A stretch of DNA of 56,098 nt from a virus. Its lineage: Duplodnaviria; Caudoviricetes. Shown piece after piece: positions 11,769-28,218 of this stretch (within the stretch, counting starts at the first letter, position 1; every line of letters starts with the position of its first letter). Position numbers and translations under genes: made by a program. Under the pieces are notes generated by a model. The model ran no database searches and was not told the DNA's origin. It was given only the letters and a program-made list of their open reading frames with translations. The stretch is taken from IMG/VR virus record IMGVR_UViG_3300048625_000523, positions 1 through 56,098 of that record; one strand, written 5' to 3'.

Positions 11769-13667
11769 TCAACTCCACGCAGATAGATTGGGTTCCGGCT
11801 CTTTCAATTCTTCGAGCTCTGACCATCTTGCACCAACTTCGCCTTCCGACAACATTGGCACGTCAAATTCAACGGACATCATGATGTCGCGCAATCGCAA
11901 CATTTCACGCTTCAAAGCTTTTTTCGGGGCGCTGATATCAATTTCATCATGCACTGTCAGCATGAATCGGGCGTCCCCGTACCCTGCTTCATAGTACCGA
12001 CAAAGAGCTTCTTTGGTGCAGTCTGCTGCCGTACCTTGAATCAAGTAATTCAGCAACTTGTATTCAAATGTTTGGATTCCTCCGTTGTCGAGCTTGCGAG
12101 GCGGTTCGCAAAAATACTGTCTCCCACCCCATGTACGGATTGATTGTCCACTGCGACCTCTGAACTTGAGCGCATCCTCCAATGTCTTCACTCCTGGCAG
12201 CACACCTTGTTGTGCCCGCTTTATGCCGCGAGCTTCTTCCACGGTGCGTTGAATGCGTTCTGCCAGGGTGCCCAACCCCATCCCGTACAACATGCCAAAG
12301 TTGATCGTCTTCACGGATCCTCTGTCCAATGCCAAGCCCAATCCTGCTAACCGTTCTCGCACATATTGGTGTACATCCAGCCACGGGTTTTCCAAGAATG
12401 CTTGCAGCAGTGCTCCGTCTTCGAAGTGGGCCAGAATGCGGATTTCTTGTGAAGAATAGTCTCTGCGACCGATCAAGTGGGTGGGTTTGTCAGCCAGCAC
12501 ATACTTGCGTATGAGCGGCAAATGTTCAAGATTCTTTATGAACGTGGGGTGCTCCCAACCATCTTGCTTTTCCTCCATGTCTTTGGGGATGTTCTGGAAG
12601 TTCGGCGAACTTTGCAGTCGATTGCTTCGAGCCCCACCTTCGTCGGATCCAGAACTTCCGCGCATTTGTCTCCAGTGAGTGTGTATCAATCCGCCGGTGT
12701 TCTCTGCTTGTTCAAGCCAAGGCCTCATGAATGTGCGGATGAATGTAGTGAGACGTGCTCTATACCCCAAAGCCAACCACAGCTCTTGATCTGCAAACTG
12801 GTGCTTCTTTGTTGTCTTCTTGCTCAGAGACTTATTGCCCTTCTCTGTCAGAGACCAATCGCTCACAGACCCTGCGTCGTCCAGAGCTGAGACCATTTTG
12901 CGTGGGCTGTCGAAGTCAAGTTCTGCAACCCCCAACCGCTTCAACATCCACTGTTCCACACGTTGCTGCGCTGCTTCGTACTTTGGCAATTCAGCTTGCA
13001 ACAGAGGCAAATCCACTCGAATGCCTTCCGCTTCATTGCGACGCAACATCGGCAACAATCGTTGCTCGCGTCTGTAGGCCTCCCACATGCCGCGCTCTCG
13101 GATGCTTGGGGCCAGGTGCTTGAACAACTTAATTGTACGCTCCACGTCGCCATTGGCGTACGGAGCCACAATATTCCCAGGCACCTTGCTAATGAATTCC
13201 CCAACATCCTTGCGAGACCGTGGAACCACGTTATGAACCCACAACCATTCACGCATGGTGTCTCGTTCATCGGGGGGCAACCCAAGTAGTCGTTCTGCCG
13301 ACGGTTTCAGCTCTAGGCTGAAGGCATGCGGGTTATCTAGCGCAAGCAAAAACATTGTGTCGTGACACTTGTCTTCCGGCGGAGCAACAGCTCCGCAGTG
13401 CGCTTCAGCCACATCTAGGTCGAATGACCCGTGGTGACAAACCAACCCGAGAGTGCAAGCTTCTTTCAAAGCTTCACGCACATGCCGCTTACCGTCTTCT
13501 TCAGAACAGTTGTTGCCCCCCGAAGAGTGCCCCCAAGCAAAGTACTTGGGGGTTCGCCAACTTGGCATTTTGATGCTGACCCCAACAGGTTTGGGCGGGT
13601 AGTCAGGCCGCTTCCTGATAGGTTCAGTTTCAAAGTCCAAGCCGATGGGATTGTCGAGACGCGACAT
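11769..13667 (-). CDS. polA: DNA polymerase family A with 3'-5' exonuclease domain
   Basis: ExoI LDFETE, PNFQNIP, motif A DYSSQEIR, motif B KTINFGMLYG, motif C VHDEI. Confidence 0.95.
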   Translation of the reverse strand: MSRLDNPIGLDFETEPIRKRPDYPPKPVGVSIKMPSWRTPKYFAWGHSSGGNNCSEEDGKRHVREALKEACTLGLVCHHGSFDLDVAEAHCGAVAPPEDKCHDTMFLLALDNPHAFSLELKPSAERLLGLPPDERDTMREWLWVHNVVPRSRKDVGEFISKVPGNIVAPYANGDVERTIKLFKHLAPSIRERGMWEAYRREQRLLPMLRRNEAEGIRVDLPLLQAELPKYEAAQQRVEQWMLKRLGVAELDFDSPRKMVSALDDAGSVSDWSLTEKGNKSLSKKTTKKHQFADQELWLALGYRARLTTFIRTFMRPWLEQAENTGGLIHTHWRQMRGSSGSDEGGARSNRLQSSPNFQNIPKDMEEKQDGWEHPTFIKNLEHLPLIRKYVLADKPTHLIGRRDYSSQEIRILAHFEDGALLQAFLENPWLDVHQYVRERLAGLGLALDRGSVKTINFGMLYGMGLGTLAERIQRTVEEARGIKRAQQGVLPGVKTLEDALKFRGRSGQSIRTWGGRQYFCEPPRKLDNGGIQTFEYKLLNYLIQGTAADCTKEALCRYYEAGYGDARFMLTVHDEIDISAPKKALKREMLRLRDIMMSVEFDVPMLSEGEVGARWSELEELKEPEPNLSAWS

Positions 13668-17631: not shown

Positions 17632-19656
17632 CTACCATTTTGACTTTGACGCGAGCGGATGATGTTCGTCGTAGTGGTTGCACGCTTCCTTCCACGCAGC
17701 TGAGCCTCTCCAATATCCGTCATTGCGAATCGCATATACCATAATCATCGTACCATCCGCCGTGCGCAGTCGGTTCCCAGCACAAGGTGGGTTGAATCCT
17801 GCCCTCTTCAACTCGCGCGACATTGTATTGAGCGTGCAGCGCGAATTGCCCAACGGGTCGTACAGTGCCAACAATTCTTTGGGTGTGAACAGGTCTCCAG
17901 TCAGTCCAGCGCGGTGCAGCATGGAAGTGGTGTTGATGCGCAGTTCTTGCACCCATGCAGCGATATCACTCTTGTTCGCCGATTGCATGTGCATCTTGCT
18001 GATCGTCATTGGTGCGGGCTCCGTGGGGTCGAATTTGCTGGTGTCCACGGTCAGCAAGTGGTGCCACAAAGCGGATATAAATTCGTCATCATTTAGTGCT
18101 GCAACAGCTCGTTTGCGCAAAGACACAGACAACTTACCGCTCAAAACTTCGTGGATGAAGAACCTTCGGTCTTGGTCGTCCATTGTCAGTGCGTCAGGAT
18201 CGTTGGACGTGATGTAGTAGTTGATAGTGTCCAGTATGGAGTATGATGGTATGAACTTCGGATCTAGTCGTATGTACTTCTGCGTGACCATTGTCATCAA
18301 TCGCCTCATGAACCTGCGGTCTCCACGTGCTGTAATATCGTCAGCCAATGCAAACTGCTTGTTCTCAGCCCACTGGAACCGTCCATCGTCCAAGTCTTGA
18401 TCCTTCAGCTCTGTGCTGTTCTTGCCGTAAATCCGACACACCATACTTCCGATCAACGTCTTGCCTGTGCCGTGCTCCGGCCCCCACACCAACACAGCAG
18501 TGTTCAATTTGTATCCGGGGTTCTGCAGCGGATAGGCCAGCCATTGTTCGAACCAATTGCGCGATTCATCCTGCTTCAGGAACAAGTGGTCCAATAACTC
18601 GTGCCAAACTGAACAATCACCTTGTCTCGGTGCGTCTATACCCCACCCACTCCATGTATTGAGAAGCCCTTGTTGTGTGACCGTGGGTTCTCCAGGCGCG
18701 AAGGCCACGCCACGCACTTCACTGCGATGCTCCCACTTCAACCACTCCGTGGCTGCAGACTTCTTGGTCAGCGTTACTTCGCCACGCTTGTTCACAGTTT
18801 GTTCCCAGTGTGCAATGTTGGCAAAGGCGTGGTTTGTAAATGATTGTGGGGGCAGCTTTTGTTTCAGTTCATGATCCCACACGAATCCTGGGTCTCTGAC
18901 ATACACCACTCTTTGGTTGAGCGCATGCAGTGCTTGCGATGGGCTGAACTCGACAGCACCCAATAACACTGCATCCAATTCTTCCGCACCGTACAAGAGT
19001 ATGAAGTCGTCCAACCCAACCTTGCTGACTTCTTCATTTGCGGGCAACCGCGCCAACATTACTCGGGCTCCCAGCTCTAGCAGTCGTTTAGACAACACAC
19101 CTTCGGCCCGCACAATGTCGGGATTCGTGGCTGCGTCGGAGTCGAACACAATGTATACCATGCGTCCATCCCATGCAAATTGTTGCAAGGAAGGTAGCAC
19201 ATGCAACTCATTCTTTTTGGACATGAAACACCAAACCCCGCCCAATCCCAGCGTGGGGTACCCAAACTTGGTCGCGCAAGCAGCTTTCAACTCACCTTCA
19301 GTGATAATCAGTGGTACTGAAGGGTCTTGAGCGATGGCAACCCAATCAACGAATGGTGCAAAATACACTTCATTGATCGTGGCCGAAGGTTGTCCGTATC
19401 TCAGGGGCTTGGGTTGTGTGATTTTATCGAAACCTTTGCGGGTGTCTGCAAGGTACCGGTACCGATAGAACTTCGTGACTTTGCCATCCAGGGCGAAGTA
19501 TGGTATTTTGAAGCCTGCTGCGTATGCAGGCAATTTGAGAGACTTTTTGGCTTCAGCTTCTTGAAGCAGCTCCAGCTTGAGCAATTTTGCATCAGACAAA
19601 TCAAGCAGCGAACCACCCAGCTTATTCTCAAACAGCGTTTCTAAGGGTTCTGTCAT
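17632..19656 (-). CDS. Primase-helicase (Toprim/DUF3854-like plus SF3/D5-like helicase)
   Basis: IITEGELKA, VFDSD, KVGLDDF. LAYPLQNPG and Walker A GPEHGTGKT. Confidence 0.9.
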   Translation of the reverse strand: MTEPLETLFENKLGGSLLDLSDAKLLKLELLQEAEAKKSLKLPAYAAGFKIPYFALDGKVTKFYRYRYLADTRKGFDKITQPKPLRYGQPSATINEVYFAPFVDWVAIAQDPSVPLIITEGELKAACATKFGYPTLGLGGVWCFMSKKNELHVLPSLQQFAWDGRMVYIVFDSDAATNPDIVRAEGVLSKRLLELGARVMLARLPANEEVSKVGLDDFILLYGAEELDAVLLGAVEFSPSQALHALNQRVVYVRDPGFVWDHELKQKLPPQSFTNHAFANIAHWEQTVNKRGEVTLTKKSAATEWLKWEHRSEVRGVAFAPGEPTVTQQGLLNTWSGWGIDAPRQGDCSVWHELLDHLFLKQDESRNWFEQWLAYPLQNPGYKLNTAVLVWGPEHGTGKTLIGSMVCRIYGKNSTELKDQDLDDGRFQWAENKQFALADDITARGDRRFMRRLMTMVTQKYIRLDPKFIPSYSILDTINYYITSNDPDALTMDDQDRRFFIHEVLSGKLSVSLRKRAVAALNDDEFISALWHHLLTVDTSKFDPTEPAPMTISKMHMQSANKSDIAAWVQELRINTTSMLHRAGLTGDLFTPKELLALYDPLGNSRCTLNTMSRELKRAGFNPPCAGNRLRTADGTMIMVYAIRNDGYWRGSAAWKEACNHYDEHHPLASKSKW

Positions 19657-19689
19657 AATTCAACGTTGTGACGGAGTTGAAGACGAGGC

Positions 19690-19767
19690 GTCGCCTCGCG
19701 CTACATAGAGTGAGGAGGAGCTGAACCCGACTCACTCGCAGGCCGTCTCCTGGTAGCGCGAGGCGAC
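19690..19767 (-). ncRNA. Putative structured small RNA/leader (three-way junction)
   Basis: Perfect 15-bp outer stem (19690-19704/19753-19767), 7-bp stem (19708-14/19731-37) and 4-bp stem (19739-42/19749-52). Its 5' end coincides with the predicted start site of the adjacent promoter. Confidence 0.65.
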
Positions 19768-19772
19768 AATGT

Positions 19773-19801
19773 ATTGTGTCTCAGACACAAGTAAAAGGCA
19801 A
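19773..19801 (-). promoter_or_regulatory. Sigma70-like promoter for the ncRNA/primase
   Basis: TTGCCT-N17-CACAAT. Confidence 0.6.
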
Positions 19802-19803
19802 TC

Positions 19804-20265
19804 TCAAAACGCAACCCCCATGCGCAGCTGCGTTACACTCACAGTGCCGTTGCCAATGGCTGGAACCCACAACACATCCCAACGTCCTTTGCCAATTTGA
19901 CCACTCAGCACTGCACCACCAAGCATGTTGCAGGTCTTGAGTTGTGCGCACGTGTAGCCTGTAGCATATACACCCCACACCCCGGCTGAGAAGGTTCCAA
20001 GCTTCAGAGGCTTGTAAGCTCCGCCCATGTGCATGGAACCGCCTCCATAGCTGTTCGTGCCGAAGCCCACGTCGGTGGAAAGTGTTTCGTTGAAGTCGTG
20101 TTGCCAACTGATGCGGTGCGGCTGTTGCCACGGCTCACACTTCTTGGCGTACGAAGATTGACATTCGGAAGTGTGTTTTGTGTATGCGTCCAACATGATT
20201 CTATCTTCTGCAACACACACCCCACTGCTCAACAACATTGCAACACACAACCATCTTACTTGCAT
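19804..20265 (-). CDS. Secreted, probably outer-membrane beta-barrel protein (PagP-like)
   Basis: Signal peptide, alternating beta-strand pattern, YTKH and TNSYG motifs, terminal Phe. Confidence 0.55.
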   Translation of the reverse strand: MQVRWLCVAMLLSSGVCVAEDRIMLDAYTKHTSECQSSYAKKCEPWQQPHRISWQHDFNETLSTDVGFGTNSYGGGSMHMGGAYKPLKLGTFSAGVWGVYATGYTCAQLKTCNMLGGAVLSGQIGKGRWDVLWVPAIGNGTVSVTQLRMGVAF

Positions 20266-20311
20266 TTTAGTTCTCCTGAAATAGACAGTTCGTGGGTACT
20301 GTCTCAACCCA

Positions 20312-20512
20312 TTATGTTCGCTCTTCGAACATCTCTTGCGCTGCTTCGATTGTGTACAGATCGTCGTTCGGCACAATGAGCAGTCTGCATCCGTCAAGCG
20401 TCACACGCCAACAATCTGTGCGCCCATCGCTTGTTTGAATGTACACTTCAGTGTTGGGTTGTGTGTTGTGCTTCAGCAATTCCGCGATGAGTTCTTTGAT
20501 TTGCATTGCCAA
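20312..20512 (-). CDS. Hypothetical protein
   Basis: Small early ORF in the co-oriented block. Confidence 0.5.
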   Translation of the reverse strand: MAMQIKELIAELLKHNTQPNTEVYIQTSDGRTDCWRVTLDGCRLLIVPNDDLYTIEAAQEMFEERT

Positions 20513-20517
20513 TCCTT

Positions 20518-20739
20518 TTAAAGTGTGCTCAACCTGCTGATAGCTGCATCCAACAACATCCCAGCTGTTTGTGTTCTGCTGGCTACTGCTGATCCGCCAA
20601 GTCTGTACCGACCGCCAGACAATTCTTCTACCACTGTGAAGGCAATTGTCTCTCCTGCTTCACACCGTTGCAACAACTCCTTGGCGCATTCTACAGCCTT
20701 GAAGTCTGGGGTTGTTTGCAGCTCAACAATATTGCTCAT
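20518..20739 (-). CDS. Hypothetical protein
   Basis: Small early ORF with ATGA overlap. Confidence 0.6.
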   Translation of the reverse strand: MSNIVELQTTPDFKAVECAKELLQRCEAGETIAFTVVEELSGGRYRLGGSAVASRTQTAGMLLDAAISRLSTL

Positions 20740-21027
20740 TTTGGCATCCTGTGTGCGTATGCTTCAAAGTACCGGTCGTATGCTTCTTTTGCAGAACGGC
20801 CAGTTGTCTCGGCGTATACATAGTTGCGCACAAAGAAGCTGTCTGCCAACACAAAACCGTGACACACCCAACCGCCAAGTCTGTCCAAACATAGATGGGG
20901 TTTCTTGCTGCTCAACCTATTTCTGGCAATCATTGTTGTCCTCCGTTGTTGTCTACACCTTGTATCTAGATATGTGCTTTGGGTGTCAGCCCTTCGGTCG
21001 GCTGTCGCTGATCTCAAACGTCAGAAC

Positions 21028-21261
21028 TCATTTTCTACCATTCAGCCACTGTTTAGCCTTTGCAAGCCGCGAGTTCATTGCTTCGCTTTTGTATGGGCCT
21101 GAAGTGTGCTTAATGCTGTTTTGCAAATCAATAGTCGATGCATGCCCAAGTGGTACACCTAGTAGTCCAAAGCCTAAGCACGAATTTGATATGTTTTGCT
21201 GCTGCGCGTTGTATCGGGCGCGGGCTGCATCGCTCATTGAAAAGTATTCGTATTGGTCCAT
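21028..21261 (-). CDS. Hypothetical protein (degenerate cassette)
   Basis: SD AGGAG. Flanked by decayed attC halves. Confidence 0.5.
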   Translation of the reverse strand: MDQYEYFSMSDAARARYNAQQQNISNSCLGFGLLGVPLGHASTIDLQNSIKHTSGPYKSEAMNSRLAKAKQWLNGRK

Positions 21262-21279
21262 TTCTAACTCCTATGTGCG

Positions 21280-21337
21280 TTCTAGCTCTTCAATCCATGG
21301 GACTCGCTACAAGCCGCCGGGTATTTCTGCGTTATCC
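21280..21337 (+). repeat. Degenerate attC-like site
   Basis: TTCTAGC TCTTC AATCCATG...GACTCGCTAC...TTCTGC GTTATCC. Confidence 0.5.
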
Positions 21338-21613
21338 GACACGGCCTTCTAGCATTCTGATCGTGTCATCCCACCGAATAGCACTACGGTCATTCCACTT
21401 TTTCAACTTCGACAAAATCAACTCATCACGCCCTTTATATCGGTTTGCAATTGCGACAGTCAGAGCCACCTCCATGTCCGCAGCGCGCTCCATTACATCG
21501 ATCCGAGACGCCTCTATGCCTCGCGCTACGTGGTCGCTGACATAGGCCGATACCTCTGGGTTTTCTTTTACGTAGTCTTGCACATAGTTCAAAAATGCGA
21601 TGTGGTCTTTCAT
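21332..21613 (-). CDS. Hypothetical cassette protein
   Basis: Single ORF between attC sites, stop codon inside the core site. Confidence 0.65.
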   Translation of the reverse strand: MKDHIAFLNYVQDYVKENPEVSAYVSDHVARGIEASRIDVMERAADMEVALTVAIANRYKGRDELILSKLKKWNDRSAIRWDDTIRMLEGRVG

Positions 21614-21633
21614 GGCTTGCCCTTTCTTAGAAA

Positions 21634-21721
21634 GCCTAACACGCCAGCCAAGCTGGCTCCGGCAAGCTGCGCTTGTGATGCCCTCGTTTCACTCGGCTGC
21701 CTCTTACCTCAAACGTTCGGC
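21634..21721 (+). repeat. attC-like site (88 bp)
   Basis: GCCTAAC...CTTACC TCAAAC GTTCGGC. Confidence 0.75.
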
Positions 21722-21722
21722 G

Positions 21723-22106
21723 TCATGGGCGGCTATCCGCGCCGCACCTGGGGCAGCAGCCAGACCACATCTGCGCTTCGCTCATAAACACCTTGCAGCT
21801 TTCGCACCGGTATTGCTCGCGCTTCGGCTTCGGCTTTGGCTCGGGCGTCAGCACAATACCGGTTCCGGCCAGCGCCTCTTCGCGCTTGATGTACTGCATA
21901 TCAACAGCCGGGCGCGTCTTGGCGTCGATGTAATCCTTGGGCCACGGAATGTCCGTCTCGCGCATTTCGTGTTGGGCAACTGCTTCGTCTTTGGTGTAAG
22001 CGTGAGCCTTACTTAAATCAGTCGTGTAACCTTTGCCGTCCTTGGCCCACCAAAGCACATCGTTCCCGACATAGCCACGGCTGTCTTGCAGATAAAATAG
22101 TTGCAT
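21723..22106 (-). CDS. Phage hypothetical protein with C-terminal Zn ribbon (cassette)
   Basis: MQLFYLQDSRGYVGND..WW...GYTTDL. CESC/CPRC. SD AAGGA. Confidence 0.7.
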   Translation of the reverse strand: MQLFYLQDSRGYVGNDVLWWAKDGKGYTTDLSKAHAYTKDEAVAQHEMRETDIPWPKDYIDAKTRPAVDMQYIKREEALAGTGIVLTPEPKPKPKREQYRCESCKVFMSEAQMWSGCCPRCGADSRP

Positions 22107-22127
22107 GTTTAGTCCTTTTAAGATGAC

Positions 22128-22190
22128 GCCGAACACTACATTCGAGGGGATTCGCTGCAAGCTGCGCTTTCCGCTCTCCCCTCACTTACT
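22128..22190 (+). repeat. attC-like site with the right core site lost
   Basis: GCCGAAC ACTAC ATTCGAGG...CCCCTCA. Near-duplicate of 23357-23427. Confidence 0.6.
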
Positions 22191-22372
22191 TCAGCCAGTA
22201 TGCACGCTGTTGCGAGTTTCGCAATCAAGCTATTGTGTGCGGCATGCCACCCTGCCCACGCATCTTGTACCGATGGCAAAACATAATCCCCCGCCTCGTT
22301 TCGGCGTTTTGTGTGCTGATTGTTTCCGAGATGTTCGAGTTCAAACGCCTTACGAATTTTGTTTTCATTCAT
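22136..22372 (-). CDS. Hypothetical cassette protein
   Basis: SD AAGGAG. Contains Y....VQDAWAGW.A. Reads through the damaged attC. Confidence 0.6.
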   Translation of the reverse strand: MNENKIRKAFELEHLGNNQHTKRRNEAGDYVLPSVQDAWAGWHAAHNSLIAKLATACILAEVSEGRAESAACSESPRM

Positions 22373-22393
22373 TTAATTCTCCTTGTTTAGCCA

Positions 22394-22454
22394 GCCTAAC
22401 TAATCGCTTGAGCGCGACTCCGCTTCGCTACGCGCCTCATCTCAAACGTTCGGC
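22394..22454 (+). repeat. attC-like site (61 bp, classic 59-base-element size)
   Basis: GCCTAAC TAATC GCTTGAGC ...CCGCTTCGCTACGCG CCTCATC TCAAAC GTTCGGC. Confidence 0.85.
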
Positions 22455-22690
22455 GTCAAAATCGCTTCAGCCAATTGCATGCCTTCTGCAACAGCCTCAT
22501 CCCGCATCACTCTGGCGGCGAGCCGGTCAATTCCCAGCACCTTGGCAAATTGCCCCTCGCTTAGATTTCCCGTCTCCCATGCCAGCAGCAATTGCGCGTT
22601 CTCCAGTTCTGTCTTCAGGCTGCATGCCGTGCCTCTGTGTTTGGCTTGGTAGAGCCTGTAGCGTCGTTGCTTTAGTTGATCCATGTTCAT
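22442..22690 (-). CDS. Small HTH protein (UPF0175-like), cassette
   Basis: WETGNLSEGQFAKVLGIDR. Ends TPNV* inside attC. Confidence 0.55.
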   Translation of the reverse strand: MNMDQLKQRRYRLYQAKHRGTACSLKTELENAQLLLAWETGNLSEGQFAKVLGIDRLAARVMRDEAVAEGMQLAEAILTPNV

Positions 22691-22704
22691 CACCTTTCTG
22701 TGAC

Positions 22705-22788
22705 GCCGAACAATTCCGTCGAGCGGACGGTTGCAAGCTGGGTTTCTTAACGTGGTCAGTCCGCGCCTGCTCACGTCAAACGTTAGGC
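22705..22788 (+). repeat. attC-like site (84 bp)
   Basis: GCCGAAC AATTC CGTCGAGC...GCTCACG TCAAAC GTTAGGC. Confidence 0.85.
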
Positions 22789-22967
22789 GTCGAGTTTGCC
22801 CGCACTTTCTTTGCTGCGTCCTTGAGCAAAGTTGTTGCAAAACTGTCCAGCAAGTATTCGCAAGATTGGTTCGTTTTCCACAGGGCGATATTCTGTTCTG
22901 CGGCTTCTACCAACTGCATCGCAGTTGAGTTTTCAATGCTTTCTTCCGGCAAACAAAACAAGCCCAT
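22776..22967 (-). CDS. Hypothetical cassette protein
   Basis: SD GGAG. Ends TPNV* inside attC. Confidence 0.55.
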   Translation of the reverse strand: MGLFCLPEESIENSTAMQLVEAAEQNIALWKTNQSCEYLLDSFATTLLKDAAKKVRANSTPNV

Positions 22968-22987
22968 AGTTATCTCCGTTATCGCCT

Positions 22988-23070
22988 GCCTAACCACTCC
23001 GCCGAGCAGACGGGTTGAAGCTAGGCCGTTTAATTAGTCTTGTCCGCCGCTGCTCACGTCAGCGTTATGC
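22988..23070 (+). repeat. attC-like site (83 bp)
   Basis: GCCTAAC CACTC CGCCGAGC...GCTCACG TCAGC GTTATGC. Confidence 0.8.
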
Positions 23071-23337
23071 ATCACGATCATCAAGCGCCAAAGCTGCGTC
23101 AATCGCACTCAGCGCGCCTTCATCGTAGGTGCGGCACACAATCGCGGCCCGCGCCTCTTTCAGAGCTGACAAAAGTTGCTCGCACTTCCCTGTGCCTGTT
23201 TCGTGGTCGGCTTCAAGTTCAAGCGTTTTCACTCTCAAGCGTTCAATTTCCTTCGCCGCAGCCAGATATAGCGACGTGTTTTCATAAAGGTGATTTCTCT
23301 CTGCCACATCGCGCAGATGTTCGACTACATCGTACAT
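23065..23337 (-). CDS. Hypothetical cassette protein
   Basis: SD GGGAG. Contains AAKEIERLR and LLSALKEA. Stop codon in the attC core. Confidence 0.65.
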   Translation of the reverse strand: MYDVVEHLRDVAERNHLYENTSLYLAAAKEIERLRVKTLELEADHETGTGKCEQLLSALKEARAAIVCRTYDEGALSAIDAALALDDRDA

Positions 23338-23356
23338 TTCAGTCTCCCTAAGTGAC

Positions 23357-23427
23357 CCCTAACACTACATTCGAGAGGGATTCGCTCAAGCTACGCTTTT
23401 CGCTACCCCTCAATTACGACGTCAACC
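23357..23427 (+). repeat. attC-like site with mutated right core (GTC)
   Basis: CCCTAAC ACTAC ATTCGAGA...CCTCAAT TACGAC GTCAACC. Confidence 0.65.
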
Positions 23428-23562
23428 AACACGAACATGCCGGCAGCCCGCGATATCGCAATCGCGACAAACGATCACAGCTCCGCTGTCCGGGCTTCTG
23501 ACTTTGCACTATAACTCCGCACAGCAAGTCCAGTTGCTGTTGTTTTGTCGGGTACATGAGGC

Positions 23563-23856
23563 TTACAGCATTTCGTCCAAACGCGCACGGTCTGCCTTGG
23601 ACAACTTCTTTTCTTTAGTTGCAAGATGCTGGCCCACGTACCGTTCCCCTCCCTTGATAAGCAAAGCTGTTTCATCCGGGGAAAGAAAGGTAATAACGTC
23701 GGGGTTACGTCTCAATGTGTCATGAATAAGCCCCATAATGTTCTTATATGCAGGCACGTCAGAGGCCAAGGCTGTTTCTAATTCTGCAAAATGCATCTGC
23801 AAACGGGTTGCATCTTCGGCTGAAAGCGTCGCTTCCGGTATGTCCAACATTGGCAT
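23563..23856 (-). CDS. Hypothetical protein with its own promoter
   Basis: SD AGGAG. Upstream TTGCCA-N17-CAAACT at 23872-23900. Confidence 0.65.
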   Translation of the reverse strand: MPMLDIPEATLSAEDATRLQMHFAELETALASDVPAYKNIMGLIHDTLRRNPDVITFLSPDETALLIKGGERYVGQHLATKEKKLSKADRARLDEML

Positions 23857-23912
23857 ATAAGGTGTTCTCCTAGTTTGTTAAAACTTAAGTAGTTTGGCAA
23901 GTACCCCTGCTA

Positions 23913-24104
23913 TCATTTAATCCTCCGCATGATGTTACGTTTAACCCACGGCTCCGGGCGTGTAGCCAGCTTCTTTGCTGCATCATCCTTGGCCTTGGCC
24001 TGTTCATTTGCCACAGCCGCGAGCATAAACACAGCCAAAGATGCAGCGAAAAAGTATCCAAATATCTTAGCCACAGTTAGATACCTCCAAGATGGATAAA
24101 CCAA
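23913..24104 (-). CDS. Small membrane protein
   Basis: One hydrophobic helix followed by a basic tail. Confidence 0.45.
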   Translation of the reverse strand: MVYPSWRYLTVAKIFGYFFAASLAVFMLAAVANEQAKAKDDAAKKLATRPEPWVKRNIMRRIK

Positions 24105-24111
24105 TACGGCC

Positions 24112-24462
24112 TCATTTTGAGGCCGACTTCACGTTAGGGGTCAGCGGCTCCATCGTGTAGTTGCCACGCCAAGCCATATCGCTCGGCCAGTGCGAACCGT
24201 CCTCACAATCGCAGTCCTGATCTAGTGGTGCGCTGTCGGGGCGCATGTCCTTGTCAATGCACTGCGCAGAGTGCGTGACAACGCCGCAGCAAACCTGCTC
24301 AACTTCCTCGCTCCAGCCTTCATCAAGGTATCCGGCGATGGCGTCCTCTGCTGCTGCATCGCGGTCTTCTTCTGTGCGGAAAAACATCACCCCTTCCCAC
24401 TCAGGATCGAACAACCAAAACGGGTATTCGCTGTGCGGGTGCATCTTGTAATCTTTTGCCAT
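24112..24462 (-). CDS. Acidic phage hypothetical protein (cassette)
   Basis: DEGWSEEVEQVCCGVVTH. Ends TPNVKSASK across an orphan core site GTTAGGG (24133-24139). Confidence 0.7.
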   Translation of the reverse strand: MAKDYKMHPHSEYPFWLFDPEWEGVMFFRTEEDRDAAAEDAIAGYLDEGWSEEVEQVCCGVVTHSAQCIDKDMRPDSAPLDQDCDCEDGSHWPSDMAWRGNYTMEPLTPNVKSASK

Positions 24463-24485
24463 GCTTAAACCTTTCTGGGTCGAAC

Positions 24486-24563
24486 CGCTAACAAATCAAT
24501 CAACCACGCTCCACTTCGTTCCGCTGGACTCGCTACGCTCGCCGGTTATCTCAAACGTTAGCG
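24486..24563 (+). repeat. attC-like site (78 bp)
   Basis: CGCTAAC AAATC AATCAACC...GGTTATC TCAAAC GTTAGCG. L'' carries the extra base expected of attC. Confidence 0.9.
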
Positions 24564-24570
24564 CCCATGT

Positions 24571-24804
24571 TCAAAGTGCATCTAGCGCCGCTTGTATTGC
24601 AATTCGTTCCGCTGGTATGTCTGCCACCAGCATCCATGAGCTTTCACCCTGCTCCCAATGTGTGCTGCTACATTCCACATAGGCCCGCTCTTTGGGATCA
24701 ATATAAAAACACACAGCATCTTCGTTCCCAAGAACCATATGCCCTTCCGTGCATGAAAGCTGCACAGAACCTTGCCGCAACACTGTTAGTCGAGTGTCTT
24801 TCAT
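24571..24804 (-). CDS. Hypothetical protein
   Basis: SD GAGG, co-oriented with neighbours. Confidence 0.55.
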   Translation of the reverse strand: MKDTRLTVLRQGSVQLSCTEGHMVLGNEDAVCFYIDPKERAYVECSSTHWEQGESSWMLVADIPAERIAIQAALDAL

Positions 24805-25000
24805 TTCTTCCTCCCCTCAACCCCAAAACACCCTGTTTCCTACCAATGCACCCATCAAGATTGCATCCGCTCCAACAGCCACAGCCGCACGTCGCAAGGT
24901 GCCAGGCTCACCACTTCATAGCAAATGCCGTACAGGCTCCGGAACTCCGGTCGCAACACCTCTTGCAACCTCTGCCTCACACTCTTCAAGTGCCCGCGAT

Positions 25001-25294
25001 TCATTTCTGCACCTCGCGAACCTTCAACCTGCGCTTCTGCGTCTCCGGAGCCCGCTCAGCCACAATGCGCACCCGTGTGTCAAGCAACGGCGTGGCGAGC
25101 CAGTACAAAACTCCACCCTGCTCACTCGACTCTACTGCGTGGTACTGGTGCAGCACATGCAACGCTCTGCTTACGTCTGCACGCTCTAGTCCCACAGCCT
25201 CAGCAACCTTACGCGCCGTGGCGAAGTCATCCAACTGTTCAAGGTACTCCATGCACATTGAAGTGTGTGTCGGCTGTTTCAATATCCGTGGCAT
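25001..25294 (-). CDS. Winged-HTH protein
   Basis: TARKVAEAVGLERADVSRALHVL...V....G.LYW. Confidence 0.65.
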   Translation of the reverse strand: MPRILKQPTHTSMCMEYLEQLDDFATARKVAEAVGLERADVSRALHVLHQYHAVESSEQGGVLYWLATPLLDTRVRIVAERAPETQKRRLKVREVQK

Positions 25295-25295
25295 A

Positions 25296-25568
25296 TCAAA
25301 CTCCGTAGTATTCAATCTCACGCAGCGCTGCGTTGTACGCAGCCTGCCACCAGTACTGCGCCACTGCAGCTCGCTCTGTGCTCGTGAGCGCATCGTAGTA
25401 CTTGTCCGCACCCAGAGCTTCTTCAATCCTGTGGGGCCGCCACGGGAAGTACTGCGACGTTGCACACCCCACTTCCGCGTCTGCTCGCTTCTCCGCCTCC
25501 GCGTGGAAGGTCTCCGCCTCTTCGCAAGCCCTGTGGTGCGCGTTCTCTGCCCGTTCCAGGAAGTCCAT
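25296..25568 (-). CDS. Hypothetical protein
   Basis: Start MDFLERA abuts the upstream stop codon. Confidence 0.55.
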   Translation of the reverse strand: MDFLERAENAHHRACEEAETFHAEAEKRADAEVGCATSQYFPWRPHRIEEALGADKYYDALTSTERAAVAQYWWQAAYNAALREIEYYGV

Positions 25569-25921
25569 CACACACCCCCTTTCCGCGCCGCAGCAATCCG
25601 CTGCTCTAGGCTCTTCAACTCCTCCTCGAAGGTGTGGTCGATGCACTGTTCGTCCAACTCATTCACAGCCCGAAACGCCACATCCACCGCTGCATCCGCA
25701 ATCTGCTGCAGCTCCTCAGCAACCCCTCTTGCAGCAGCAATGCGCACTTCTAACTCCGGGGGCAGCCCTACTTGCCTGCTGCGCTCAGCGTCGCGGTACG
25801 CAAGGGCTTCCGCCTTCGTAAAAAACACGCGTGCATCCGTGGAAAACTCACTGCGGTACGGCAGGTGTGTCTCAATGTAGCCGTCAGCCGACGACACATA
25901 GATAGTGCGATATTCAACCAT
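25568..25921 (-). CDS. Hypothetical early protein
   Basis: Strong SD GAGGAG. First gene after the promoter at 25968-25996. Confidence 0.65.
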   Translation of the reverse strand: MVEYRTIYVSSADGYIETHLPYRSEFSTDARVFFTKAEALAYRDAERSRQVGLPPELEVRIAAARGVAEELQQIADAAVDVAFRAVNELDEQCIDHTFEEELKSLEQRIAAARKGGV

Positions 25922-25967
25922 TTCTCAGCTCCTCATTTTGCGAGGCCTCGACGGAGACCTCAGTAAC

Positions 25968-25996
25968 AGTCTATGCCTCAATTCCGCGCTGGGCAA
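25968..25996 (-). promoter_or_regulatory. Sigma70-like promoter
   Basis: TTGCCC-N17-TAGACT. Confidence 0.7.
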
Positions 25997-26027
25997 GCTC
26001 TTTTACAAGCCCGCCCAGCCGTTTATT

Positions 26028-27017
26028 TCACGCAGAGAGGGCCAACTGCACGGCAGCCGCTTTGCGCCCAGCTCCAGCCCCGTACCATGCTTGGTACAAG
26101 CTGTGATCCACCGTCTTGCGCGTCCTGGCGGCAGCCAAGTCATAATCAACAGTCTCCGTCACGGCGTTCAACCACCCCCAAGCCGTGCCTGCCACTCCGG
26201 CGAGCTCCGCGCCTTTGCCCGCGCCGTCGAAGAGTGTGAGGATCTTCGTGTAAGCGGGGGACGCCTCAACCTTCCGAGCTGCGTCGGTTCCACGGCCTGC
26301 ACCGGGGGCGAGCAGTTGCAGCGTCATGTCGGCAGCTGCGAGGTCGGAAACACGCTTCTTTGCAAGGTCGCGAGCTGTGGAGATGAACTCTTTGAAGTTC
26401 CCTCGAGCCACACCCAGGGAGTCCTTCACTGCTGCCGGGTTGAACGTGGAGCGGTGCCCAATCTTCACGCCTTGCAGCTGTCCAGGTTGCATCGCCATCG
26501 ACAACGTATTGTTGCACACTACACGCACCGTCGTGAAGCGTGCATCCGTGGCGGTGGATCCGTCTGCACTGGTAGAAAGCAACAAGTACCCACCCACCAC
26601 ATCTTTGGGGGAGATAATTTTGGCCGACTCATTGATGCGAGCCAAAGCCCAGAACCGCTTGCCCTGGAACAACGTGCCTGCGGTCTCGAGTGTGAAGCCA
26701 TTATCCACCACAAGGTCGCTGAAGAACTCCAGCACCTCGGCAGGTTGCACCACTTTATACATGTCGGACACAATGCCCAATCCCTCTCCGGTGTCGGAGC
26801 GGTGCAGCACGCGCTGATTGTCGAAGGTGCGCAGGCCTTCGGGGGTGCTGTATGCCACAGCGGAAGATTGGATGCTCCAATCGAACCGTGCGGCTTGGAT
26901 CCAGGTGGGGATGTCAGCACCTTCGGGCAATTGTTGGCCCAATTGGTGCCACGGTGTGGTTCCTACGTAAGCCATTTCAGCCTTGTTGTCTGCGCGGATG
27001 GTAAGTTCGTGTGCCAT
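26028..27017 (-). CDS. DUF932 family phage/plasmid protein
   Basis: MAHEL...MAYVG.TPWHQLG, YKVVQP, ETAGTL..GKRFWALA, TVRVVCNNTL, GTAWG.LNAVTE. Confidence 0.9.
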   Translation of the reverse strand: MAHELTIRADNKAEMAYVGTTPWHQLGQQLPEGADIPTWIQAARFDWSIQSSAVAYSTPEGLRTFDNQRVLHRSDTGEGLGIVSDMYKVVQPAEVLEFFSDLVVDNGFTLETAGTLFQGKRFWALARINESAKIISPKDVVGGYLLLSTSADGSTATDARFTTVRVVCNNTLSMAMQPGQLQGVKIGHRSTFNPAAVKDSLGVARGNFKEFISTARDLAKKRVSDLAAADMTLQLLAPGAGRGTDAARKVEASPAYTKILTLFDGAGKGAELAGVAGTAWGWLNAVTETVDYDLAAARTRKTVDHSLYQAWYGAGAGRKAAAVQLALSA

Positions 27018-27060
27018 GGTTCTCAGCTCCTCTGTTTGTACTACGATTGACGGAGATATC

Positions 27061-27090
27061 AGTATGGACTCAAGTTACTGACTTGGGCAA
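27061..27090 (-). promoter_or_regulatory. Leftward early promoter
   Basis: TTGCCC-N18-CATACT. Confidence 0.6.
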
Positions 27091-27904
27091 AGTATTTTGA
27101 GAATATTTGTACGCTTGCCAGGCAGCCTTGAGATTCTCTAGACAAATAGATCTTTTGACGTTCAAAGTGGTTGCGCATCTCAGGGTCTCGGGGGCTGCGG
27201 ATGGGGTGTGGACATATCTGGGGTGGTATAAAAAGCAAGGCAAGCTTGAAAACACGGGAAAACCCTGATGAAAGTGGTGATATCCGTTTGGAATTAGAGT
27301 TTGGGGGTGAAAGTCAGTAAATCGACACGTTTTTAGCTGTTTTTATCAGTAAAACGCATGACGACAAAATAGACAAATAAGTTGGCGAAAACCTGCAATA
27401 TCCGAAACGCATACAAGGTTCGAAGACAATTTATTTGTCTGTCAAAACAAGGTAGAATGAATATCTGCGCGGGTTTGCGGCTGGTTCGCGGTTAGTTCTA
27501 CCGAGGTTGCAAAAGGCGAACTAGCGGAGACGCTGTGGAGGCGCGGGTTGCTACGGTTTTTTAGATTAAAAAAAGCTTGGTTCGTCTTTTTTACGTCCAT
27601 TACTATATATATATATTACTATACTCTTACTGATATCTCTCTTCTCCTTCCTCTCTAATAATAAAAGAAAAAGAAGAACCACTACTTTTCTCTCTCCTCT
27701 CAGCCCCGAGACCCGCGATCCTACACGCTTTGCGACTGTTCTTCTTCTGCGCCCATTGGACGACGTCATTTACCCTCCAATCGCCCGCAGACCCTGGGTA
27801 CTCCGGTGTCTGCGATAGTTCGCCTTTCTTAAAAAAGACGAACTGCATCTAACTTATGCGAACGGCATATGCTTACGGGATATTGCGGATTCTCAACAAA
27901 TTTA

Positions 27905-27933
27905 TTGCCCAAGTCAGTAAGTTGAGCCAGAGT
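27905..27933 (+). promoter_or_regulatory. Rightward promoter, an inverted copy of the leftward one
   Basis: TTGCCC-N17-CAGAGT. 21/22 identical to the reverse complement of 27069-27090. Confidence 0.55.
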
Positions 27934-27984
27934 TCGTCTTACCGACTTGCCGGATCGCAAGAACTTTCCAAATTGGAGAACACC

Positions 27985-28218
27985 ATGGCCTACACCACAA
28001 TCCGTACCCAAGTTCTGAAGCCTGCGAATGTCGAAGCTGCGAAGCGTGGCTTCCTGAAGACGTTGTGCGACTACGTTGCCAAGAATGGCGACGTACCGAC
28101 ATCGAAGCTGGTGAAGCGATTTGCAGGCAAGACCGACGGCAGCAAGGTTGTTTCGACTGAGCGTGTCGTGCGGTATGCGTACTACGCAGTTCAGCATGGC
28201 TTGCTGACTGCGCACTGA
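27985..28218 (+). CDS. Small basic putative DNA-binding protein
   Basis: SD GGAG. Has its own promoter and terminator. Resembles the C-terminus of 8643-9299. Confidence 0.7.
   Translation: MAYTTIRTQVLKPANVEAAKRGFLKTLCDYVAKNGDVPTSKLVKRFAGKTDGSKVVSTERVVRYAYYAVQHGLLTAH

Follow-up and report, generated by a model that had tools for sequence, protein, structure and literature searches.

The early, leftward-transcribed accessory region (about 20.9-24.6 kb) of a freshwater phage genome, the IMG/VR virus record IMGVR_UViG_3300048625_000523 (Duplodnaviria; Caudoviricetes), is probably built as a series of integron-type gene cassettes, i.e., of small phage open reading frames (ORFs) parted by attC recombination sites of a Burkholderiales family and devoid of an integrase. 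The stretch analysed here, referred to as the window, is the whole record of 56,098 bases, which is rated 94% complete; it is a near-complete phage genome and not a bacterial integron.

attC-type sites and their bacterial family

The repeats between the ORFs are attC-type sites. They were scored with two covariance models. The first, R1, was made from 14 short attC-type sites of other viral contigs. These contigs were fished with a pattern taken from the right ends of three sites of the window (S1, S3 and S4; Table 1), which matched 41 IMG/VR stretches, 22 of them judged to carry clear attC-type sites (outer cores, a 5-nt spacer, an 8-nt L'' box with one extra base, a variable loop, a 7-nt L' box and a 6-nt spacer). 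The seed alignment of R1 contains compensatory changes in six of nine L-box pairs, and 92.9% of its cells pair as against 78.1% in shuffles, none of 500 shuffles reaching the observed value. The second model, R2, was made from 27 sites of bacterial arrays (Burkholderiales integrons) that do not match the fishing pattern. Five inter-ORF sites of the window (S1, S3, S4, S5 and S7) are significant with both models; they lie within 2.9 kb (21634-24563), all on the plus strand. Beyond them every R1 match across the 56 kb has an E-value of at least 0.42. R2 recovers the same five plus-strand sites (18.9-50.1 bits, E 0.0088 to 2.7e-11), and its best minus-strand match in the window scores 13.3 bits (E 0.29). 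Both cores, R'' of the type RYYYAAC and R' of the type GTTRRRY, are present in all five, with GTTCGGC, GTTATGC and GTTAGCG as deviations from the consensus. The unpaired position of L'' is C in five of the six window sites in the R1 alignment and T in S3, and S4 has spacers of 5 nt and 6 nt and an additional C in L''; L-box pairing is imperfect in S1 and S3. Folding alone was also tried as an identifier of sites and was rejected, as stability was no better than that of shuffles.

The attC family of the window is a true integron family, that of Burkholderiales chromosomal integrons. A gapped pattern of the family matched more than 130 stretches in bacterial genomes, the titles of which, among the matches listed, are mostly Burkholderiales or unclassified Betaproteobacteria (Rhizobacter, Hydrogenophaga, Polaromonas, Rhodoferax, Methylibium, Leptothrix), and R1 at E<=0.001 found 213 sites in 75 bacterial loci. 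Fifteen arrays were drawn from these loci, and the sites of each locus all lie on one strand. An IntI protein scoring above the NCBIfam cut-off (441-469 bits) is encoded in three of the five bacterial genomes checked, where it is transcribed away from the array in the canonical layout; in two genomes it is no more than about 5 kb from the array stretch examined, and in the third about 7.5 kb from it.

The 94%-complete window record yields no match to IntI (TIGR02249), no Phage_integrase domain (PF00589) and no other tyrosine recombinase, and it lacks the adjacent intI with attI and cassette promoter Pc that define a complete integron. Clusters of attC sites lacking integrase (CALINs) are recognised by at least two clustered one-strand attC sites without an integrase; here there are five, and the locus is therefore classed as a CALIN. 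No IntI above the cut-off was found in five viral records checked. In one viral contig (L181, virus record G006, 12286-12453) a frame of 103 amino acids that adjoins the attC array is weakly like the C-terminal part of IntI (34.9 bits, far under the cut-off).

Complementary ends and circles closed in silico

The substrate of IntI is the folded bottom strand of attC, and strand exchange takes place in the R' box, at G|TT as read on the top strand. With this cut the six bases past it, and their flank, would travel with the next unit, so that the resulting array would contain hybrid R boxes and the first bases of each unit would stay complementary to the R'' at its far end, giving the end patterns seen around two ORFs of the window, g15 and g13. 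A first-pass annotation of this DNA had described three such pairs of complementary ends, and all six strings are where it placed them, each pair being exact reverse complements (Table 1). It had further stated that the core opening a unit does not match the R'' of its own site, which is borne out by S1, S3 and S4, each with a mismatch at core position 4 (6/7). Its remark that GTTCGGC departs from the consensus is also sound: the variant is rare, and among non-seed R' boxes it is absent from all 62 bacterial ones and present in 3 of 51 viral ones.

The sequence GTTCGGCGTCA occurs exactly four times in the 56 kb, two copies per strand in the order plus, minus, plus, minus, with the result that g15 and g13 each stand within a perfect inverted repeat of 11-12 bp that is the same for both. 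Allowing up to one mismatch, there are 6 matches where 1.18 are expected, a number reached in none of 100 shuffles. All right ends were compared with all left ends over 13 nt each. The right end of S1 pairs with the left end of S2 at 12/12 positions, yet with that of S4 at 11/11, and the right end of S3 pairs at 11/11 with the left ends of both S4 and S2. The right end of S4 fits the left ends of S1, S3 and S5 equally (7/7); the third pair is uninformative, because 22782-22788 is the consensus core of the family. Summed over the seven adjacent junctions, 57 of 91 positions match; permutations average 49.1, and 57 is reached in 21 out of 5040 of them. In the bacterial control (15 arrays, 71 junctions) pairing at the circle junction exceeds that of the in-array site in 56 cases, falls short of it in 7 and equals it in 8, with mean pairings of 10.45 and 8.35, respectively, of 13. 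In 18 viral-contig arrays (54 junctions) the corresponding numbers are 38, 9 and 7, and none of 5000 partner shuffles reaches the observed sum. The hybrid-R' signature is thus truly indicative of recombination at the R' box, and it is a general property of phage-borne arrays. It is symmetric, i.e., the same for a cut at the right-hand or at the left-hand cores, and is therefore silent on which attC goes with which ORF; for this reason it was rejected as an indicator of polarity.

The first-pass annotation proposed that circles closed in silico should fold better than the in-array sites, and that at least three units had once been free circles. The folding comparison (bottom strand, DNA parameters; Table 1) goes as proposed for the three units it named, those ending in S2, S4 and S5, and the opposite way for S1, S3 and S7; with the possible relic S0b, junctions improve in four of seven cases. 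The cognate donor ends of the three named units rank 1st, 2nd and 1st of 9. A past as circles is thus consistent with the two informative pairs and with the circle folds, while the third pair is no more than consensus and no circle was found. The search for free circles and excision joints was negative in assembled contigs, which drop rare variants, so that this is no evidence against rare excision. Logan contigs of four runs showed no joints, insertions or deletions in the parts they cover of 19500-25500, and contigs from the source sample bridge S1, S2 with S3, and S5 with S6 in unchanged order.

The expectation that the same units would stand beside different neighbours elsewhere was not borne out, as no identical unit of ORF plus attC was found. 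A 151-nt contig (run X4, another study) has only 21671-21725 in common with the window, with one differing letter; this is the right half of S1, and the flanks on both sides are unlike the window, as would be expected of another cassette junction and equally of homologous exchange. Among close relatives of g15 in the viral-contig set there were 17 pattern matches, none of them confirmed. BLAST of a strong viral attC against GenBank phages gave no match at E<=1, and tblastn of 22 window ORFs against 178 loci gave only a weak match of g7 in the viral locus L037 and the match of g15 in Burkholderia phage phiE131. One unit is common to two viral contigs, L015 and L020 (68% identity); it was aligned to find the position of the crossover and is too diverged to decide it.

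Gene orientation, genes and genomic setting

Polarity can be read only from the internal asymmetry of the sites, the end signature being symmetric. In the window both R1 and R2 place the attC top strand on plus, and every ORF between the sites is on the minus strand. Canonical cassettes have their ORF on the attC top strand and the attC beyond its 3' end, an arrangement that the window does not show. When the longest ORF of each interval is taken, 66 of the 71 intervals of the bacterial arrays have it on the attC top strand and 5 on the opposite strand, whereas in 17 viral arrays it lies opposite to attC in 38 of 50 intervals. A stricter call, which asks for a start preceded by a Shine-Dalgarno (SD) sequence and coverage of at least 60% of the interval, gives 23 same, 5 opposite and 43 undecided for the 71 bacterial intervals, 0 same, 31 opposite and 19 undecided for the 50 viral ones, and four opposite, with none same or undecided, for the four intervals of the window. 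One extra viral array (L188) is likewise antisense, and of two single viral sites one (L189) looks canonical and the other (L183) is ambiguous. In G007, a complete phage of 55.7 kb with terminal repeats, seven sites (E<=0.05) share one strand and the ORFs are on the other, downstream of genes for a replication initiator, DnaB and a Holliday-junction resolvase; one of its units (L182, 7693-8211) encodes a Lar-like restriction-alleviation protein (phrog_599, E 2.7e-8), which hints that attC-bounded phage units carry anti-defence genes. In some long viral sites (contigs L015, L023 and L044) the SD and start codon of the antisense ORF apparently lie within the variable loop.

Read in the direction of the ORF, the units look canonical: one core contains or adjoins the stop codon, and the second precedes the start codon by 19-23 nt. 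The inversion is therefore easily missed. IntI prefers the attC bottom strand by about 10^3-fold, as stated in the accessible text of PMC13108822; from this preference it follows that the unit here is an ORF with the attC upstream of its start, i.e., g15/S2 (21716-22189), g13/S4 (22449-22782) and g12/S5 (22783-23064). The coding strand of the antisense genes is thus the recombinogenic bottom strand. No description of antisense polarity in phage attC arrays was found in the literature, a negative that covers the accessible text of PMC9892861 and not its supplementary tables. The polarity figures come from arrays of 18 viral contigs that were fished with window-derived patterns and called with simple ORF criteria, and virome-wide confirmation is therefore needed. 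That phage-borne attC arrays form a separate cassette pool of antisense polarity is accordingly a tentative proposal, and one that we would rather doubt than assert.

All ORFs between the sites start with an ATG preceded by an SD sequence. In all seven ORFs of Table 1 the distance from the start codon to the R'' on its right is 19-23 nt, a gap that contains the SD only. Pfam, PHROGs and NCBIfam gave no function for the cassette ORFs. g15 has 61% identity to GP047, an annotated coding sequence of Burkholderia phage phiE131, and g13 has four relatives of 52-64% identity with 30 invariant columns. g7 has a 39%-identical stretch of 59 amino acids within an attC-bounded unit of L037, where it is antisense to the sites too. 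The last 20 or so codons of g14 read through the relic S2 (22136-22195), the decayed right core of which is without the minus-strand stop codons that intact sites supply. S2 and S6 are 75% identical across 57 nt (repeat family D2).

Table 1. Sites, ORFs and complementary end pairs of the array. Fold energies are given for the circle junction and the in-array site, in this order.
Feature	Type	Position	Strand	Details	R1 score	R2 score	Circle vs in-array fold (kcal/mol)
S0	short relic	20984..21027	+	both family spacer motifs kept, cores decayed; repeat family D1	10.9 bits, E 0.87, not significant		
S0b	possible relic	21262-21337		defined by eye only; without model match			-5.6 vs -4.3, better
g16	ORF, left of S1	21332..21613	-	93 amino acids; weak phrog_26335 match, E 8.6e-4			
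S1	attC-type site	21634..21721	+	R'' GCCTAAC 21634-40, R' GTTCGGC 21715-21	23.6 bits, E 3.9e-4	18.9 bits, E 0.0088	-13.4 vs -15.0, worse
g15	ORF	21723..22106	-	127 amino acids, phage-type protein; phrog_2457, E 3.5e-25			
S2	degenerate attC-type relic	22128..22195	+	R'' GCCGAAC; R' decayed to CTTCAGC, GTT lost	12.1 bits, E 0.42	unseen at E<=5	-20.7 vs -11.1, better
g14	ORF	22136..22372	-	78 amino acids; phrog_343, E 1.4e-5, residues 1-54 only			
S3	attC-type site	22394..22454	+	R'' GCCTAAC, R' GTTCGGC	38.6 bits, E 4e-8	36.3 bits, E 1.5e-7	-9.3 vs -10.2, worse
g13	ORF	22442..22684	-	80 amino acids; stop codon in S3 spacer			
S4	attC-type site, best of set	22705..22788	+	R'' GCCGAAC, R' GTTAGGC	46.8 bits, E 2.9e-10	50.1 bits, E 2.7e-11	-22.6 vs -16.7, better
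g12	ORF	22776..22967	-	63 amino acids; stop codon in S4 spacer; SD-preceded ATG; no family match			
S5	attC-type site	22988..23070	+	R'' GCCTAAC, R' GTTATGC	25.8 bits, E 1e-4	29.6 bits, E 1e-5	-16.9 vs -13.1, better
g11	ORF	23065..23337	-	90 amino acids; stop codon inside S5 R'; SD-preceded ATG; no family match			
S6	degenerate attC-type relic, S2 subfamily	23357..23427	+	R' decayed to GTCAACC; repeat family D2/D3	partial match 23369-23415, 8 bits, E 4.9		
g7	ORF, left of S7	24112..24462	-	116 amino acids; phrog_35663, E 8.7e-6			
S7	attC-type site, last of cluster	24486..24563	+	R'' CGCTAAC, R' GTTAGCG	29.8 bits, E 9e-6	32.1 bits, E 2e-6	-5.3 vs -9.1, worse
Pair 1	inverted-repeat pair	21715-21726 with 22123-22134		12/12; brackets ORF g15 (left arm 21715..21726)			
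Pair 2	inverted-repeat pair	22448-22458 with 22701-22711		11/11; brackets ORF g13 (left arm 22448..22458)			
Pair 3	complementary pair	22782-22788 with 22988-22994		7/7; GTTAGGC with GCCTAAC			

At the stop of g21, 22 nt (19801-19822) are 73% like the right end of S7 (repeat family D16); they are perhaps the remains of one more site, with which the cluster would reach 19.8 kb. TGACCCCTAAC, at the left end of S6 (23353-23363), recurs as a perfect reverse complement, GTTAGGGGTCA, within the 3' end of g7 (24133-24143). Three small minus-strand ORFs (g8-g10) lie between the two, which are ordered as in a single very long site or in one that is split.

The phage encodes a large terminase, a family A DNA polymerase, a DUF3854/DUF5906 primase-helicase and a DUF932 protein. 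The terminase of the nearest GenBank phages is only 45% identical, and a search of the viral-contig set with the primase-helicase found no close relatives; Burkholderiales are the likely host group. Gene orientation changes at about 27 kb, from the minus strand on the left to the plus strand on the right, and the cumulative GC skew has its minimum at 26-27 kb. At this minimum lies an AT-rich (44.6% GC) divergent intergenic region (27050-27950) with a TA run and two long inverted repeats (27069-27097 with 27898-27926; 27512-27531 with 27808-27827), likely a control or origin region. Between g21 and the start of the primase-helicase gene there is a long hairpin (19687-19767) with perfect 15-bp outer arms and inner pairing, without an Rfam match. 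No tRNA genes were found.

Mechanism, alternatives and meaning

In a phage without an integrase, rearrangement would occur only in trans, by the IntI of the host during infection. The units of g15 and g13, and perhaps that of g12, would have entered or moved by recombination of attC with attC or by insertion of circles, and we infer that the events were catalysed by IntI and went via circles. S2, S6 and S0 have decayed, so that their units would now be fixed in place. More speculatively, early transcription might leave the bottom (coding) strand as the non-template strand and, if replication starts near the skew minimum, the bottom strand might be the lagging-strand template too.

Several observations weigh against the cassette interpretation. 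R1 is partly circular in its 3' half for S1, S3 and S4, from which the fishing pattern was derived; R2 was therefore built, and R2 as well as the R1 matches to S5 and S7 are free of this circularity. The single-strand folds of the window sites do not stand out from shuffles (z from -0.87 to +0.87 in 18 folds, nine sites on two strands), and several sites may be poor substrates. Three of the seven reconstituted junctions fold worse than the sites in the array, the two long end pairs are mutually interchangeable, and in S2 and S6 the R' is without GTT. Moreover, the ORFs have relatives in loci of another build. The relative of g15 in phiE131 stands in a tight operon without intergenic sites, and at all four metagenome loci with relatives of g13 (48-65% identity) the genes form tight operons, with different neighbours and no attC match beside the gene. 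At these four loci the model at E<=0.1 gave a sole match, of 12.5 bits and 23 nt, about 1.8 kb from the gene in L195.

The alternative that survives best, although we regard it as rather improbable, is that the sites descend from attC and are now mere homology between ORFs, at which general or phage-encoded homologous recombination swaps modules between co-infecting phages, much as at the mosaic joints of other phages, with neither IntI nor circles. The complementary ends would then reflect which half-sites travelled with each ORF, and crossovers within sites can be reasoned to yield the same symmetric signature. The phage without an integrase, the poor folding of its sites, the 151-nt contig with only the right half of S1 between unlike flanks, and the relatives of the ORFs without attC all agree with such swapping. 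However, a signature of similar size is found in bacterial arrays of genomes that encode IntI (56 of 71 junctions), and within the window and each of the 17 viral arrays the sites keep to one strand. The viral-contig sites also keep compensatory L-box pairing and the unpaired base, and the kept pairing implies selection for a folded substrate and not for sequence homology only.

Much less probable is a role of the repeats in RNA, as hairpins for processing, stability or termination of an early polycistronic transcript, to which the likeness to attC would be incidental. Sites are indeed present in every gap of the co-transcribed minus-strand run g16-g11 and on both sides of it, stop codons lie inside sites with the starts 19-23 nt away, and the covariation in pairing would equally fit an RNA hairpin. 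Yet no terminator-like or promoter-like site coincides with the repeats, Rfam families are absent at E<=1 across 19500-28000, the fold energies are no better than those of shuffles on either strand, and the sites match a bacterial attC model (R2) from arrays in which the other strand is transcribed. We give hardly any credence to a passive piece of bacterial integron acquired by illegitimate recombination and without a role in the phage: the attC family is that of Burkholderiales integrons and such a route of entry is discussed in the accessible text of PMC9892861, but the ORFs are of phage type (PHROG matches of g15, g14 and g7, and a homologue in Burkholderia phages), have SD sites, are co-oriented with the phage early operon and are antisense to attC, unlike those of the bacterial arrays.

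Seen as a cassette array, the locus is a further phage CALIN, and its complementary cassette ends are textbook integron biology. Phage-borne CALINs were published in 2023, with 17 in phages and 5 of 6 tested attC sites recombining with attI1 under IntI1 (PMC9892861, in its accessible part). As here, attC sites bracket small ORFs in a genome without intI; the phages and the attC family are other ones, the window being of Burkholderiales type. The cassettes are described there as 'oriented in the same direction', whereas in the window the ORFs run against the attC top strand; a comment on the strand of the genes relative to that of attC was not found in that text, and its supplementary tables may bear on the point. 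Chromosomal arrays of Burkholderiales (Rhizobacter, Methylibium, Ideonella) share the attC family and the hybrid-R' signature with the window. They differ from it by an encoded IntI (three of five checked), by ORFs on the attC top strand and by larger units, with about 400-600 nt between sites and SD-preceded, interval-filling ORFs in only 28 of 71 intervals. The systematic antisense polarity, as compared with these bacterial arrays of the same family, is an aspect that was not found described, and it is what is out of the ordinary here.

Another family of phage modules is formed by the promoter-early stem-loop (PeSL) cassettes of T4-type phages, small early ORFs bracketed by structured repeats of about 70 nt that hold an early promoter and are thought to mediate modular shuffling. 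The window likewise has small early phage ORFs between repeated structured motifs, but its sites are homologous to integron attC and without promoter-like sequence: between 19500 and 27000 there is no promoter-like site, and the only one found is at 27590-27617. In the inverted chromosomal integron of Vibrio cholerae (Richard et al., 2024), bottom strands on the lagging-strand template favour folding and excision, according to the accessible text of PMC13108822. The phage array would have the same arrangement if the genome replicates outward from the skew minimum at 26-27 kb. That inversion was engineered in a bacterium and turned the genes together with the sites, whereas in the window only the sites are inverted relative to the genes.

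If an antisense pool does exist, the hairpins would be exposed by early transcription and, should replication start near 27 kb, by lagging-strand synthesis, and host IntI could then shuffle phage accessory genes, some of them anti-defence genes, within one infection. Cassettes that pass from one pool to the other would be silent: at attI a phage cassette would run against Pc, and in the phage a bacterial cassette would run against early transcription. Should the polarity hold across viromes, phages would keep an integron-compatible pool of accessory genes of their own that depends on host integrases. Integrons would thereby be linked, on the part of the phages, with the arms race over phage defence, and there would be a testable rule for how cassette orientation governs expression and mobility.

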